DNA from: a virus
Lineage: Duplodnaviria; Heunggongvirae; Uroviricota; Caudoviricetes
DNA: 15,551 nucleotides
Strand: one strand, 5' to 3'
IMG/VR virus record: IMGVR_UViG_2675903575_000009
Location: 1 to 15,551 of that record
The stretch's first letter is position 1. Every line of letters begins with the position of its first letter. A model generated the notes under the pieces. That model did not search any database. It was not told the DNA's origin and worked only from the letters and a program-made list of their open reading frames with translations. Positions 1-8,508 of this stretch are shown here, piece after piece. The translations under genes were made by a program, and so were the position numbers.

Positions 1-723
1 TTACGGGGTAATGCCAACCGCTGCCGCCACTTTGTCGCCACTAGTGCTTTGTTTTTCGAATTCATCTAAGGCTCTTTCAACATCAGAAAGATACTCTTTG
101 AATGAGTTCAAGATCATGCTTAACGAGCCCCCCATAAATAGGACCTGTTTTCCATCTTTTTTAAAAAAATCAGGATATTTTTCTATAAGTTCAATAATGC
201 TTTTAATATTTTGCCCATCGTTTTCTAAGTATTTTGCATCATTATGCGCACAACTGTTTCTTAATTTTGTTATTTTTTTGATATTCGAATAGTGGGATGT
301 TGACTTCATCCCTATCATTTTTTTGATAAATAGATGGCTCCTCTCAAATCCACTTCCTTTGAGATCTGAAACATTTATAGGAGAATGATGTCTATTAGCA
401 AAGTTGTTACAGAATTTTTCTATTTCGTGTTCAAAAATTCCGAATATAGTTAAGAATACTGACCTGCGGATAATACTTGGGTAGTATTCTAAAAACATTT
501 CATCGAGATCTAGCGATGAGCTGGTGAGTCCCATGTAATGATCAATTGACTGATATACACCATCTTCCGGAGATATTTCAATTATATATTCTTCAGGTCC
601 TTTGTCTTTATATTCTGCTATGCCCTTAGCGATTGATGATTCGCTATGAGTGATTAACGTCTCGATAATATCAAATGTTAAGGAGAAGTCGAATATTGGG
701 AATTGAAACAAAAACTTAACCAT
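1..723 (-). CDS. Hypothetical AT-rich cargo protein immediately downstream of int; contains an R-x4-H motif (RNSCAH) reminiscent of HEPN-type RNase/abortive-infection proteins
   Basis: Six-frame ORF 1..756 (251 aa) with stop at 1-3; I prefer the internal Met at 723 (weak AAGG about 9 nt upstream) over 756 (no RBS). Markedly AT-rich compared with the neighbouring int. Motif KLRNSCAHN fits the Rx4-6H HEPN signature, but one short motif is weak evidence. Confidence 0.5.
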   Translation of the reverse strand: MVKFLFQFPIFDFSLTFDIIETLITHSESSIAKGIAEYKDKGPEEYIIEISPEDGVYQSIDHYMGLTSSSLDLDEMFLEYYPSIIRRSVFLTIFGIFEHEIEKFCNNFANRHHSPINVSDLKGSGFERSHLFIKKMIGMKSTSHYSNIKKITKLRNSCAHNDAKYLENDGQNIKSIIELIEKYPDFFKKDGKQVLFMGGSLSMILNSFKEYLSDVERALDEFEKQSTSGDKVAAAVGITP

Positions 724-733
724 GCTTGAACCT

Positions 734-1765
734 TTAAGAATCTGATTTAGTAACATCCAAAGTTGCTAGTGGATTGAAACGAAGAGCTGTCTCTAAGTGA
801 TCAGGTGATAGATGAGCATAACGCATAGTCATTTTTATGTCGTGATGTCCGAGGATTTTTTGCAAAGCAAGGATGTTTCCACCCGACATCATGAAATGCG
901 CCGCAAACGTATGACGCAGAACGTGTGTAAGTTGACCGCGAGGGAGCACGATAGACGTTTTTTCCATCACGGATAAAAATTGAAAATAGCAGTCTGTGAA
1001 GAAATTGAACCCATCAAGCGCCATGATCTCTTCATAAAGCTCTTTACTGATAGGGATGCTTCTGTTTTTCTTCCCCTTCGTTCTTACAAAGGTAATTCGG
1101 TATTTGGTCACCTGTGATCGGGTAAGGTTTATTGCTTCTCGCCAGCGTGCGCCTGTGCTTAAGCATATCTTGACTACCAGTGCCAGAATTGGGTCCTGAC
1201 GTTTGCAATCATCCAGCAGTTCAACAATCTGCTCATGGGTAAGCCATGCCATCTCTTTTTCTGCGATGGTGAATTTTCGCATGTTCTCCAGTGGGTTTGG
1301 ATACGACCATTCGCCCAGGCGGGATAGTTCGCTAAAAACACTACTTAGATAGCTTTGCTCCAGGTTAATGGTGACCGGGCTGGCCCCTTTCTTCCATTTC
1401 TCGCTGAAGTAGATCTCACCTGTCAGTCGTTTATCTCGATAATGGGCAAACATTTTAGATGTGAGATCGGTTGCAAGGGGATTGCCCAGAGCGTCAACCA
1501 TCAGCAGCAATTTGTCATAGACATGCTGCCCAGCAGTCAGAGATTTACCATGTAGTTTGAACCATAGCTCAACCACGTCTTTCAGGGTTCGACGATCTAC
1601 TGATTCGCCCAGCCAGGGCTTTGCTTCGGTTTCTTCCATCGTGTGACGCTCAAAAGCCAGTGCTTCGCCTTTGGTGGCGAATTGTTTACGCACACGACGC
1701 CCACTACGTCCGGCGGGGTAACATTCGCAAAGCCATTTTCCTGTGGTGAGTTTTCGTACTGCCAT
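734..1765 (-). CDS. int: Tyrosine site-specific integrase (P2 Int-like)
   Basis: N-terminus MAVRKLTTGKW...RSGRRVRKQFATKGEALAFE closely parallels the P2 Int N-terminus; C-terminal catalytic region HVLRHTFAAHFMMSGGNILALQKILGHHDIKMTMRYAH carries the R...HxxR...Y tyrosine recombinase signature. The ORF track extends to 1843, but the conserved start is the Met at 1765, preceded by GGAGGG (1774-1779 on the minus strand). Confidence 0.92.
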   Translation of the reverse strand: MAVRKLTTGKWLCECYPAGRSGRRVRKQFATKGEALAFERHTMEETEAKPWLGESVDRRTLKDVVELWFKLHGKSLTAGQHVYDKLLLMVDALGNPLATDLTSKMFAHYRDKRLTGEIYFSEKWKKGASPVTINLEQSYLSSVFSELSRLGEWSYPNPLENMRKFTIAEKEMAWLTHEQIVELLDDCKRQDPILALVVKICLSTGARWREAINLTRSQVTKYRITFVRTKGKKNRSIPISKELYEEIMALDGFNFFTDCYFQFLSVMEKTSIVLPRGQLTHVLRHTFAAHFMMSGGNILALQKILGHHDIKMTMRYAHLSPDHLETALRFNPLATLDVTKSDS

Positions 1766-1794
1766 AAAAAATGCCCTCCAATAGAGAGTATTTT

Positions 1795-1818
1795 TACTGT
1801 ATGTATAACCAGTGTCAA
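1795..1818 (-). promoter_or_regulatory. Candidate LexA (SOS) box overlapping a sigma70-like promoter directly upstream of int
   Basis: TACTGTATGTATAACCAGTG (1795-1814) fits CTGT-N8-(A/C)CAG with an AT-rich spacer; the CCAG right half is the variant I recall from the uvrB box. On the minus strand a perfect TTGACA -35 (1813-1818) lies 17 nt from AAAAAT (1790-1795), so the box covers the spacer. 17 of 20 positions match the box at 8016-8035. Confidence 0.4.
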
Positions 1819-1951
1819 TGTATGAAATCTTGCGACCATACATCTCACTGAAGCCATAATGAAGTTGGCTATTTTTTGCTATGTGAGTATGTGACTTTTG
1901 CGGTTAGCCTGCGGCTCATTGTTATATTAGGCGCAGATATAAAAGCAAAAA

Positions 1952-2143
1952 TTATCGCGAGTTTTTAGTACAGATTTTTTTTGATTTACTAATAGTTCCA
2001 TCATTGCAAACGAACTTTCCATCGGAGGTACAGTGAGAGACACCTCCCTTTTTCCCAGAACAAGGATAATTTTTAGCATAGGTAGTTAGTGGGTTTAATA
2101 ACAAAGAGCATGATAAAACCACAAAAAATACCTTACCAAGCAT
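1952..2143 (-). CDS. Small (63 aa) AT-rich secreted or lipoprotein-like Cys-containing protein between cI and int
   Basis: Strong RBS GGAGG about 7 nt upstream of ATG (minus strand, around 2150-2155); N-terminus [23 protein letters not shown] looks like a signal peptide (possible lipobox VLSC); the mature part has 4 Cys. AT-rich relative to the flanking cI and int. Confidence 0.5.
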
Positions 2144-2158
2144 AGTTTCCTCCCGGTA

Positions 2159-2728
2159 TTACCTAACGTACTTAATTGTTAAACTTATAATTTTTCCAAT
2201 TATTTCAACATCTTCTATCTTGCACTCGAAGGCTCTGTTTCCACCTTCAACGAAGATTCTTCCACCGGGTAAACGAGTAATGTCGCGGATTGTTATTTCG
2301 CCATCAATACTTATTACCCATTTACCATCACGTATATCATCAAATTCTTTATCACAAATAAATTCAGAATTGTTATCTGTGATGACAAAAGGTTTTTTAA
2401 ACGTAGAGGGTAGAAATCCCTTATCAAAAATATAAAAACCGTCTTCACGCAAGGCACCATCAGATAATACATATTTAGCAACTTCCATCGTATTTGTATT
2501 ACCTGAAGTTTGCTTTGAACCATGTCCAGTTGTGAGCCAATTAAGCGAGGTGCCCGTTTCAAGGGCGCACTGGATTACCCATTCTGCTGGGAATGAGTCA
2601 CGCATGTAGCGTGTAGCGAGTGTACTTTTAGAGATTCCTAAATGATCGCACAACGCCTGTCGAGTTTTGAATCCATAAGCTTCTACCATGCGCTCTATAG
2701 CGCCTCGTCCGCCTTTCTCCAAATTCAT
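2159..2728 (-). CDS. cI: Phage CI-type immunity repressor (186 CI-like, HTH N-terminal domain)
   Basis: About 190 aa, the size I recall for 186 CI rather than the roughly 99-aa P2 C; N-terminal HTH-like segment KTRQALCDHLGISKSTLATRYMR; divergent from the cox/apl-like early operon. Start taken as ATG 2726-2728 (GGAG 5 nt upstream); the ORF track begins two codons earlier at a GTG. Confidence 0.8.
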   Translation of the reverse strand: MNLEKGGRGAIERMVEAYGFKTRQALCDHLGISKSTLATRYMRDSFPAEWVIQCALETGTSLNWLTTGHGSKQTSGNTNTMEVAKYVLSDGALREDGFYIFDKGFLPSTFKKPFVITDNNSEFICDKEFDDIRDGKWVISIDGEITIRDITRLPGGRIFVEGGNRAFECKIEDVEIIGKIISLTIKYVR

Positions 2729-2752
2729 GGTCACTCCAAGTGAACTTTTATC

Positions 2753-2781
2753 TTGACGATTTCATCGTGCGATCGTATGTT
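2753..2781 (+). promoter_or_regulatory. Candidate early lytic promoter (pR/Pe-like) with overlapping operator-like palindromes
   Basis: TTGACG (2753-2758), 17-nt spacer, TATGTT (2776-2781), about 70 nt upstream of the cox/apl-like start. The spacer holds the palindrome ACGAT-TTC-ATCGT (2756-2768) and CGATCG (2771-2776); a related ACGAtccgtatTCGT lies at 2803-2817. Confidence 0.4.
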
Positions 2782-2853
2782 TATGGTGTTCACAAAATAC
2801 AAACGATCCGTATTCGTCCTGATTAATCATCATTAAACGAGGAATGTTGCATC

Positions 2854-3075
2854 ATGAGACCTAACATTTCAATCACTCTTACCACGCCTCATGTGACTAT
2901 TGAACGCTATAGCGAGCTGACAGGACTGTCCATCGATACCATCAATGACATGTTGGCTGATGGACGCCTTATCCGTCACCGTTTGCGCAAAGATAAAAAA
3001 CGCGAAAAAGTGATGATCAACATAGCAGCCATGACCGTTGATGCGCTTTCAGAATGCAATCTAAACCTTAATTAG
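2854..3075 (+). CDS. Cox/Apl-like excisionase and transcriptional regulator (small HTH protein, first gene of early operon)
   Basis: 73 aa, divergent from cI, GAGGA RBS 10 nt upstream; sequence [28 protein letters not shown] resembles the P2 Cox / 186 Apl HTH region; position is diagnostic in P2/186 phages. Confidence 0.65.
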
Positions 3076-3101
3076 TTCGATTCTGAAATACATCAGAGGC
3101 A

Positions 3102-3617
3102 TTGACCATGTTTGATTACCAAGTTTCCAAACATCCACATTTTGATGAAGCCTGTCGTGCATTTGCACTGCGCCACAATCTGGTGCAACTGGCAGAACGT
3201 GCAGGCATGAATGTGCAGATTCTGCGGAACAAGCTGAACCCAGCTCAGCCTCATTTATTAACCGCACCAGAAATCTGGCTGCTTACCGATCTGACTGAAG
3301 ATTCAACGCTGGTAGATGGTTTTCTGGCACAGATTCATTGTCTGCCATGTGTACCGATTAATGAGGTGGCAAAAGAGAAACTGCCACATTACGTCATGAG
3401 TGCAACCGCAGAGATCGGGCGTGTTGCTGCAGGTGCGGTATCTGGCGATGTAAAAACCTGTGCCGGTCGTCGTGATGCCATCAGCAGCATTAACTCTGTA
3501 ACACGACTGATGGCGCTGGCGGCTGTTTCATTGCAGGCCCGTTTACAGGCTAATCCTGCGATGGCAAGTGCAGTTGATACTGTAACTGGCCTCGGTGCGT
3601 CATTCGGTTTGCTGTGA
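3102..3617 (+). CDS. cII: 186 CII-like lysogeny-establishment regulator
   Basis: 171 aa (186 CII is about 169 aa as I recall) immediately after apl/cox; HTH-like segment [19 protein letters not shown] near the N-terminus. Confidence 0.7.
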
Positions 3618-8015: not shown

Positions 8016-8035
8016 TACTGTAAATATAAACAGTG
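8016..8035. promoter_or_regulatory. LexA (SOS) box upstream of the tum/dinI-like module
   Basis: TACTGTAAATATAAACAGTG is a perfect CTGT-N8-ACAG with AT-rich spacer, about 40 nt upstream of ATG 8076, overlapping promoter-like hexamers (TTTACA 7993-7998, TATACT 8014-8019). Confidence 0.6.
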
Positions 8036-8075
8036 GTTATGTATACAGTATTGCTTTGGTGTCATAGGAGGAAAG

Positions 8076-8264
8076 ATGCAGGACTATTTTTTGGAGTCTT
8101 TGAAGCTCCAGCGCATTGATTTTTTTCTTAAGCTTGTAGCGGCTAGTGAGTGTAGTGATGAAGAGAAGGGGCTGGCTCTGCAGTGGGTTTCTGAACTGAC
8201 AGATGAACTCATGGCAAAAATCAGAACCCACGAATACAACCGCTCAATGGATGTCATCAGCTGA
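8076..8264 (+). CDS. Hypothetical 62-aa protein, first gene of the LexA-controlled module (possible Tum N-terminal-equivalent)
   Basis: Perfect AGGAGG RBS 6-7 nt upstream of the ATG; directly downstream of the LexA box; stop 10 nt before the DinI-like start. Confidence 0.55.
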   Translation: MQDYFLESLKLQRIDFFLKLVAASECSDEEKGLALQWVSELTDELMAKIRTHEYNRSMDVIS

Positions 8265-8274
8265 GGTGACTTTT

Positions 8275-8508
8275 ATGCGCATTGAAATAATGATCGATAA
8301 AGAGCAGAAGATTAGCCAGTCTACACTGGACGCCCTTGAATCCGAGCTTTACCGCAATCTGCGCCCCCTGTATCCCAAAACGGTAATTCGTATCCGCAAA
8401 GGTAGCTCTAACGGTGTGGAACTTATCGGATTGCAACTGGACGAAGAAAGAAAACAAGTGATGAAAATTATGCAGAAGGTGTGGGAAGACGACAGCTGGC
8501 TGCATTAA
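8275..8508 (+). CDS. DinI-family protein (186 Tum C-terminal-like / DinI-like)
   Basis: 77 aa; MRIEIMIDKEQKISQSTLDALESEL...IMQKVWEDDSWL parallels E. coli DinI (MRIEVTIAK...ETWESADDWF) in length and conserved ends; GAGGTGA RBS 5 nt upstream. The ORF track start at 8203 is a 5' extension in the same frame. Confidence 0.8.
   Translation: MRIEIMIDKEQKISQSTLDALESELYRNLRPLYPKTVIRIRKGSSNGVELIGLQLDEERKQVMKIMQKVWEDDSWLH

Follow-up and report, generated by a model that had tools for sequence, protein, structure and literature searches.

Does the integrase gene of a 186-like prophage have a promoter of its own and, if so, which signals would that promoter receive? In the model established for phage 186, Int is produced from the cI operon (pL/pE) and the SOS response acts only via Tum; in the 186 genome, cI and int overlap by 1 nt, no int promoter is annotated, and LexA is annotated only at p95. 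The 15,551-nt stretch of DNA analyzed here (the window) represents the left (int) end of a 186-like prophage of the Peduoviridae; the sequence of E. coli strain SHP24, in which the prophage adjoins rcdA, matches it at 100% identity. The arrangement that characterizes 186 and P2 lysogeny, with int at most about 30 nt from the repressor stop codon and no promoter in between, is absent from the window. Instead, int and cI are separated by 393 nt, which hold a ydcA-family gene (63-aa product with a signal-peptide-like N terminus and a strong RBS), a predicted promoter, and a hairpin (Table 1). An earlier note made from the sequence alone had drawn attention to a LexA-like box overlapping this promoter and had suggested that int is transcribed independently and might be repressed by the SOS system.

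TABLE 1 Genes and predicted regulatory elements of the window
Feature	Position	Strand	Basis or remark
Cargo gene, 240 aa	1..723	-	Weak HEPN-like match, Rx4H motif; inserted in int 3' end
int, tyrosine integrase, 343 aa	734..1765	-	C terminus altered by cargo insertion
Hairpin in read-through RNA	1767..1795	-	5' arm 1795-1783, 3' arm 1779-1767, then U-run; pairs with SD, terminator-like
Shine-Dalgarno (SD) GGAGGG of int	1774..1779	-	Inside hairpin 3' arm
Predicted transcription start of Pint	1782..1783	-	Promoter geometry; 186 pE half-sites at -38/-58
-10 AAAAAT of predicted Pint	1790..1795	-	Starts 22 nt past right CII half-site, as in pE promoters
Candidate LexA (SOS) box TACTGTATGTATAACCAGTG	1795..1814		Fills promoter spacer; weight matrix, chance test, conservation
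-35 TTGACA of predicted Pint	1813..1818	-	ACATTGA kept in related loci
Inverted repeat ATGTATG-N12-CATACAT, predicted CII operator	1818..1843	-	Half-sites near -38 and -57 by geometry
YdcA-family small protein gene	1952..2143	-	Moron separating cI from int; annotation
186-type cI repressor	2159..2728	-	
Predicted pE -10 CAGAAT	3085-3080	-	22 nt beyond the window's pE-type CII operator
The phage's own pE-type CII operator ATGTTTG-N13-CAAACAT	3108..3134		Overlaps cII start codon
cII	3108..3617	+	Pfam Phage_CP76 at 4e-42; 69% identical to 186 CII
apl/cox-like gene, cII, fil, other early genes, replication gene		+	
Two overlapping LexA boxes upstream of tum-like operon	8016..8050		23.5 and 15.7 bits
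tum-like operon	8076..8508	+	At position of 186 tum; downstream of tum-region LexA boxes
62-aa ORF, first in tum-like operon	8076-8264	+	No family match
DinI-family gene, second in tum-like operon	8275-8508	+	

The spacer of the predicted int promoter holds a LexA-type box

We scored the window with a LexA weight matrix built from 26 E. coli LexA sites that range from 13 to 26.7 bits. The box at int reached 23.7 bits (heterology-type index, 4.2), which places it in the upper part of the training range and makes it the top LexA-type site of the window, ahead of the tum box (23.5 bits), the second tum box (15.7 bits), and the next best site (12.5 bits). Weight-matrix scoring was the check that the earlier note had proposed for its claim of a fit to the LexA consensus, and the claim holds, as does the resemblance that it had seen between TACTGTATGTATAACCAGTG at int and TACTGTAAATATAAACAGTG at tum (8016-8035), which are identical at 17 of 20 positions. 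The 16-mer core of the int box, CTGTATGTATAACCAG (1797-1812), reads CTGT-ATGTATAA-CCAG; a CCAG right half is also present in known LexA sites such as lexA box 2, uvrB, and dinB. The gammaproteobacterial LexA operator has been described as a 16-bp palindrome, CTGT-N8-ACAG (PMC3108266).

In 2,000 first-order Markov randomizations of the window, sites of at least 20 bits arose at a mean of 0.0015 per window, and none reached 23.5 bits. The bare pattern CTG-N10-CAG occurs 12 times in the window, compared to 3.35 occurrences expected, and only the int and tum sites among these 12 feature the AT-rich spacer of a LexA site. The int box combines a palindrome, an AT-rich spacer, and a score in the range of known sites with a location that overlaps a core promoter, where it lies in the predicted spacer, and with conservation in orthologous promoters whose flanks diverge (see below). 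Most likely, int has a dedicated promoter, which we call Pint, and the 20-mer within it is a genuine LexA operator.

The tum-region operator is itself an overlapping pair of LexA boxes, TACTGTAAATATAAACAGTGGTTATGTATACAGTA, reminiscent of the double boxes of colicin promoters. The tum-like operon behind it is split in the window into a 62-aa ORF and a DinI-family gene; 186 Tum is one protein, annotated as DinI-like.

The promoter around the int box, TTGACA-17-AAAAAT, matches the consensus at 10 of 12 positions and was the best promoter-like site returned by a promoter scan of positions 1 to 3200. It lies on the minus strand, 25 nt upstream of the int ATG (1765-1763), and the scan agrees with the original description of the box as occupying the spacer of a minus-strand TTGACA/AAAAAT promoter upstream of the int RBS. 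Two of its properties count against parts of the model proposed below. The -10, AAAAAT, is weak, with four of six consensus matches, and the -35 is the consensus, unlike that of pE, so that CII may not be needed for activity.

A repeat resembling a CII operator adjoins the -35 element

The earlier note mentioned neither the inverted repeat next to the -35 nor the hairpin in the leader of int, which pairs with the SD. Together, a CII-operator-like repeat and an anti-SD hairpin would turn a simple SOS promoter into a dual-input, insulated cassette. The phage carries a reference for the repeat at the start of its cII gene, where ATGTTTG-N13-CAAACAT is the same as the annotated CII site of 186 pE. 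Scanning 508 kb of collected loci for the motif ATGTWTN-N11-14-NAWACAT, we found it only at cII starts and int promoters, with the exception of one N14 match in locus L025 that is probably due to chance. When up to two mismatches in 14 positions were allowed, the repeat was present at the Pint position in 37 of the 40 unique loci with a box, compared to 25 of 20,000 random positions (~0.1%). Among viral contigs, the N12 spacer is wholly different between contexts while the half-sites are kept, and in several of these contexts the left half-site is where homology breaks off. As explanations of the repeat, an Int arm site, an IHF site, and a terminator had also been considered and were dropped, because the same motif occurs at the cII start and matches the annotated 186 CII operator.

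The distance between the repeat and the promoter also follows pE. The right half-site is located 22 nt from the -10 in Pint, as it is in pE of the window (CAGAAT) and of loci L002 and L019 (CAAAAT), and the distance is 21 nt in loci L051 to L060 (CATAAT) and in 186 (TAAAGT). In 186 pE, the CII half-sites are located at -38 and -58 of the start, and basal activity is negligible (PMC6593788). The repeat at 1818-1843 resembles such an operator in having inverted 7-bp half-sites approximately two helical turns apart and in residing in a phage that encodes the cognate CII. However, a pE-type promoter also has a weak -35 and negligible basal activity, and the consensus TTGACA of Pint departs from this, suggesting that Pint is pE-like in its CII geometry but no plain pE-type promoter.

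Box, repeat, and promoter keep their positions across genera

A scan with the Int protein, at one genome per species, yielded 77 int loci, of which 40 feature a box of 15 to 27 bits ending 27 to 34 nt before the int ATG (one of the 40 is reported at 81 nt because its protein match begins at residue 21). Among these loci, which are spread over Escherichia, Klebsiella, Enterobacter, Raoultella, Citrobacter, Serratia, Yersinia, Rahnella, Pantoea, Pectobacterium, Brenneria, Mixta, and other genera, Int identity ranges from 53 to 99%. In every one of them, ACATTGA or a close variant stands before the box and forms the -35. The CTG and CAGT of the box are invariant or nearly so, whereas there is variation in the spacer of the box, in the leader, and in the sequence upstream. 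Since the loci were selected by box score, this conservation profile is partly circular; the objection is answered by the fixed position of the box and by the independent selection of loci through the CII repeat. Among viral contigs with near-identical Int, the box is located at -48 to -52 in 80 of 80, and nearly all of those with enough flank carry a tum-type box 6 to 9 kb upstream of int.

Although many of these related loci share ancestry, so that the counts do not represent independent events, a conserved promoter and box at a fixed distance from the int ATG (40/77 loci and 80/80 contigs) argue for the independent int promoter that had been postulated, and so does the contrast with 186, where the overlap of cI and int goes along with the lack of an own promoter. 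Comparative evidence likewise favors the SOS-repression reading, in that CTG and CAGT stay almost constant while spacer and leader diverge, albeit in loci picked by box score. The 106-nt cassette was matched in approximately 1,118 of 5,426 complete E. coli genomes (~21%). The earlier note had called an own int promoter unusual for P2-type phages, which remains true when measured against textbook models but not in terms of frequency.

According to megablast, positions 762 to 1823 of the window share ~94 to 95% identity with the int regions of Klebsiella phage 4LV2017 and E. coli phage vB_EcoM-813R9. This homology ends at 1823/1825, a few bases upstream of the -35, and both phages carry other cargo genes between cI and int. 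In Kosakonia arachidis (L072, 2392-2500), the CII-type repeat and a terminator-like hairpin are kept and the -35 and left half of the box are deleted, which looks like a decayed copy of the cassette.

The box accompanies the separation of int from cI

The presence of the box is associated with the distance between int and the repressor gene. None of the 16 loci in which CI ends 2 to 33 nt before int has a box at int, compared to 18 of 26 loci with CI at least 398 nt upstream; 22 further loci with a box have no CI within 2.5 kb. There is no box before int in 186, Salmonella RE-2010, Aeromonas A051, and Pasteurella F108, and in the last three of these int lies directly behind a same-strand gene. 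In seven loci (L034, L039, L040, L044, L045, L046, and L073), int lies 0.5 to 2.1 kb from CI, and both the LexA box and the CII-type repeat are missing in front of it. Given that int is apart from cI yet without a box in eight loci, the cassette is not the sole solution to such a separation.

In the Vibrio P2-like phage 10N.286.54.F4_PE002 (L164), int has a perfect LexA box at 2466-2485, TACTGTTTTTATATACAGTT (25.8 bits), whose end lies 15 nt upstream of the ATG; the genes upstream are on the opposite strand, and no CII-type repeat is obvious. P2-like phages of Vibrio may thus place int under LexA control as well, albeit in another layout.

Among near-identical int cassettes, the gap between cI and int varies from ~0.4 to 2.7 kb, so that the junction resembles an insertion hot spot for cargo. 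In other phages, it is occupied by a 1,050-nt hypothetical gene or a 1,677-nt ATPase-like gene; the cargo genes found there differ between phages, and none was identified as a defense gene.

On the other side of int, the window features a cargo gene inserted into the int 3' end: positions 1 to 42 reproduce, at 100% identity, the final 42 nt of int from related phages. Before the respective stop codons, canonical Int ends in NPLATLPSGDKVAAAVGITP, Int of the window in NPLATLDVTKSDS, and the cargo ORF in SGDKVAAAVGITP. The full arrangement, with cargo in int, is present in only 24 of 5,426 E. coli genomes. Matches to the cargo protein are below threshold only (Pfam HEPN_RiboL-PSP, E = 0.004; PADLOC HEC-01A, E = 0.005), and its Rx4H motif reads RNSCAH. 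The cargo gene starts 10 nt past the int stop codon, and no terminator was predicted between the two genes. The cargo gene is probably cotranscribed with int, and it is plausible, as had been proposed, that Pint drives it; given the 10-nt distance, it may be SOS- or CII-induced together with int.

Hairpins in the leader may distinguish own from foreign transcripts

Because a MAFFT alignment of the leaders left their hairpins out of register, we folded each leader separately with RNAfold and compared it to shuffled sequences. Of the 35 unique leaders, 33 have a covarying hairpin between the -10 and the ATG (median z, -5.2), among which 22 different 5' arms were distinguished. In these leaders, the 5' arm begins 0 to 9 nt past the box, and an SD-like motif is located in or at the 3' arm without exception. 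In the window, read-through RNA beginning at 1800 folds at -10.8 kcal/mol (z, -3.7) with the SD paired, and RNA beginning at 1783 is unstructured. If transcription starts ~7 nt past the -10, which corresponds to approximately 1783 in the window, transcripts from Pint would lack the 5' arm. A true start upstream of 1788 would, by the same logic, place the hairpin in Pint transcripts as well, and insulation as proposed here would fail.

The hairpin of the window itself consists of six pairs, with G-U wobbles, followed by U6; its -10.8 kcal/mol is attained once the A/U extension is counted. Its allele, TACTCTC, is weaker than the majority allele, TGCTCTC, which counts against the model. Majority alleles of the form AGCCCTC...GAGGGCT followed by T5-7 agree with the definition of an intrinsic terminator, but families lacking the U-run do not. 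No known RNA family was detected in positions 1500 to 2300 with Rfam at E values up to 1.

The U-run follows the hairpin in 17 unique leaders from Escherichia, Klebsiella, and related genera, making it terminator-like, and no terminator precedes the cassette in these. In nine leaders from Pantoea, Rahnella, Mixta, and Pectobacterium, a strong terminator is located just upstream of the CII repeat and there is no U-run; nine leaders have the anti-SD hairpin alone. U-run and upstream terminator are never combined in one leader (17 have the first and 9 the second). Strong rho-independent terminators lie ~20 to 110 nt upstream of the box in L027, L030, L032, L033, L035, L036, L041, L043, and L050, where they occur exactly in the families whose leader hairpin has no U-run, and in L035, L041, L043, and L050 the terminator directly abuts the left CII half-site. 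Judging from these sequences, the common denominator of hairpins and terminators is the insulation of int from incoming transcription. With the SD paired and with the hairpin followed by a U-run, read-through transcripts would either terminate or stay untranslated.

A two-signal model for int expression and its alternatives

We consider it likely that these elements form a compact, mobile int cassette under LexA repression, with CII as its activator at establishment and with a derepression by SOS that it shares with tum. In the direction of transcription, the cassette would consist of the CII operator (half-sites at ~-38 and ~-57), the -35 TTGACA, the LexA box from ~-31 to -12, the -10 AAAAAT, the start at ~1783, the SD, and int. 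In a lysogen, LexA bound in the spacer would keep Pint off. RNA reading through from pL-cI-ydcA would contain the bases between the -10 and the start, which would pair with the int SD and, in the lineage of the window, form a hairpin followed by a U-run; transcripts initiated at Pint, without the 5' arm, would have a free SD. After infection, CII would bind its operator in pE geometry and thereby supply Int for integration, as at lambda pI. After DNA damage, LexA would be cleaved and Pint would fire with the LexA-controlled tum operon, yielding Int for excision at a time when Tum would inactivate CI and Apl would be made. The HEPN-like gene downstream would probably be coexpressed. What the sequences show directly is the features themselves, with their statistics, conservation, covariation, and association with an int uncoupled from cI; binding of LexA and CII, the start site, the effect of the hairpin, and this regulatory logic are what we infer from them. 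Against the model, CII would need to overcome a LexA dimer between the -35 and the -10 in an undamaged, newly infected cell; the LexA and CII inputs might be combined at Pint either by an OR or by an AND logic.

Alternatively, Pint could essentially be a CII-dependent establishment promoter, analogous to lambda pI or 186 pE, in which the LexA box trims basal activity or plays a minor role. SOS alone would then give no meaningful Int, and Int for excision would derive from CII made after Tum-mediated derepression. This is unlikely in our view, even though the CII-type repeat is conserved with pE geometry, the -10 of Pint is weak, and 186-type phages make CII from pR when induced (PMC7708051): most loci have a consensus or near-consensus -35, unlike pE with its negligible basal activity, the CTG and CAGT of the box are conserved at least as much as the CII half-sites, and the Vibrio P2-like phage combines a perfect box before int with no obvious CII repeat. 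It is less probable again that int is expressed mainly by pL/pE read-through, as in 186, with the hairpin acting as a terminator or attenuator of the moron and with a weak or vestigial promoter and box. While the lack of a strong terminator between ydcA and the cassette in the lineage of the window would fit this scenario, as would a weak hairpin allele that permits read-through, box, -35, and CII repeat hold a fixed spacing across genera in which their surroundings have been replaced. Furthermore, hairpins without a U-run still sequester the SD, so that translation of read-through RNA would be blocked, and families with a strong upstream terminator retain the cassette.

The two remaining explanations concern the box itself. 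That it is bound by a phage protein (CI, Apl/Cox, or Int) and resembles an SOS box by coincidence might be suggested by its location in a phage regulatory region and by the 186 annotation, in which Int and Apl bind DNA near int, but we regard it as quite improbable. At every critical position the box agrees with the LexA consensus, its score is like that of bona fide sites, and it is constant across phages whose CI is only 42 to 66% identical to that of the window and which are therefore probably of different immunity. Moreover, the Int arm consensus of 186 (YAYCGCCAYTY) and the Apl sites are unrelated to the box, and at tum these phages employ canonical LexA boxes. On account of this constancy despite differing CI and of the dissimilarity to the 186 Int arm and Apl sites, binding by any of the three proteins was rejected. 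Nothing except the AT-rich region speaks for a chance palindrome without function, the likelihood of which we consider close to nil: randomization (0.0015 sites expected per window) and the conservation of the box position in 120 loci both contradict it.

Relation to known regulatory systems

Components of the proposed cassette have counterparts within and outside the 186 family. The p95-tum promoter of 186 belongs to the same phage family and responds to the same host repressor, with a LexA box that overlaps the core promoter, and a p95-like double box is also present in the window (8016-8050). In 186, however, LexA controls only tum and int is part of the cI operon, whereas the window has a second predicted LexA operator at int. 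To 186 pE, the similarity extends to the half-sites (ATGTWTG/CAWACAT), their spacing (19 to 20 bp center to center), and the 22 nt to the -10, from which positions near -38 and -58 are predicted for Pint. The two promoters differ in their -35, which is poor in pE and consensus in Pint, and in what they transcribe: cI and int in the case of pE, whereas Pint would transcribe only int and probably the cargo gene. The spacer of Pint bears the predicted LexA operator, and pE shows negligible basal activity.

Lambda expresses Int for integration from its own activator-dependent promoter, the CII-activated pI, and treats transcripts of different origin differently through sib retroregulation. Both traits, an own activator-dependent int promoter and origin-dependent transcript treatment, are those proposed here for the cassette. 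CII activation of lambda int is also mentioned in PMC7708051. The CII proteins and operators of the two systems are nevertheless unrelated, and lambda int is not known to be under LexA control. Lambda discriminates at the RNA 3' end (sib, RNase III), whereas the cassette would do so at the 5' end, via an anti-SD arm upstream of the start.

LexA control of the integron integrase promoter is said to have been described by Guerin in 2009. In this promoter (also named Pint), which belongs to a tyrosine recombinase gene, an E. coli-type LexA box lies over the promoter, and recombination is licensed by SOS (Cambray 2011, PMC3108266). The overlap of a LexA box with the promoter of a tyrosine recombinase gene is thus common to integrons and the window. 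Integron intI differs in recombinase clade and type of element, in having no known CII input or anti-SD insulator, and in that its box lies over the -10, whereas that of the window lies in the spacer. For insulation, the parallels come from insertion sequences. IS10 is subject to fold-back inhibition, with a pairing arm upstream of the native start. In IS200, a left-end terminator and an SD-sequestering stem-loop block expression from outside transcripts (PMC4513863). As in the proposed cassette, a recombinase gene is shielded at its 5' end by a terminator and/or a stem-loop that sequesters the SD, but these elements are not phages and are not known to be under LexA or CII control.

The cassette would join known kinds of regulation, namely, those of lambda pI, of LexA-controlled integron intI, and of IS200-type insulation. 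In the accessible literature, including a review dedicated to P2-like regulatory regions, we encountered no report of P2/186-like phages with an int promoter under the control of LexA or CII, which is absence of evidence only since this coverage was partial.

Implications for 186-like prophages

A broader claim can be made, about which our confidence is evenly balanced: that int is carried by a portable, self-insulated cassette responding to two signals (CII and LexA cleavage), with the 5' arm of its anti-SD/terminator hairpin upstream of its own start, that this design allowed the cI-int cargo hot spot, and that it is present in about one-fifth of complete E. coli genomes and across Enterobacterales. 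If the model is true, a large and common group of 186-like prophages, including those of ~21% of complete E. coli genomes as well as prophages of Klebsiella, Enterobacter, Yersinia, Serratia, Pantoea, and other genera, would wire the host SOS repressor directly to the integrase and would reuse the CII operator to supply Int for integration. The cassette would then represent a simple example of a two-input promoter with discrimination between own and foreign transcripts at the 5' end, and it would explain how variable cargo can be accommodated between cI and int without deregulated recombination. DNA-damaging antibiotics would be predicted to raise the levels of the integrase and the cotranscribed cargo directly, which would bear on how mobile these prophages are and on how the HEPN-like gene downstream of int is expressed.
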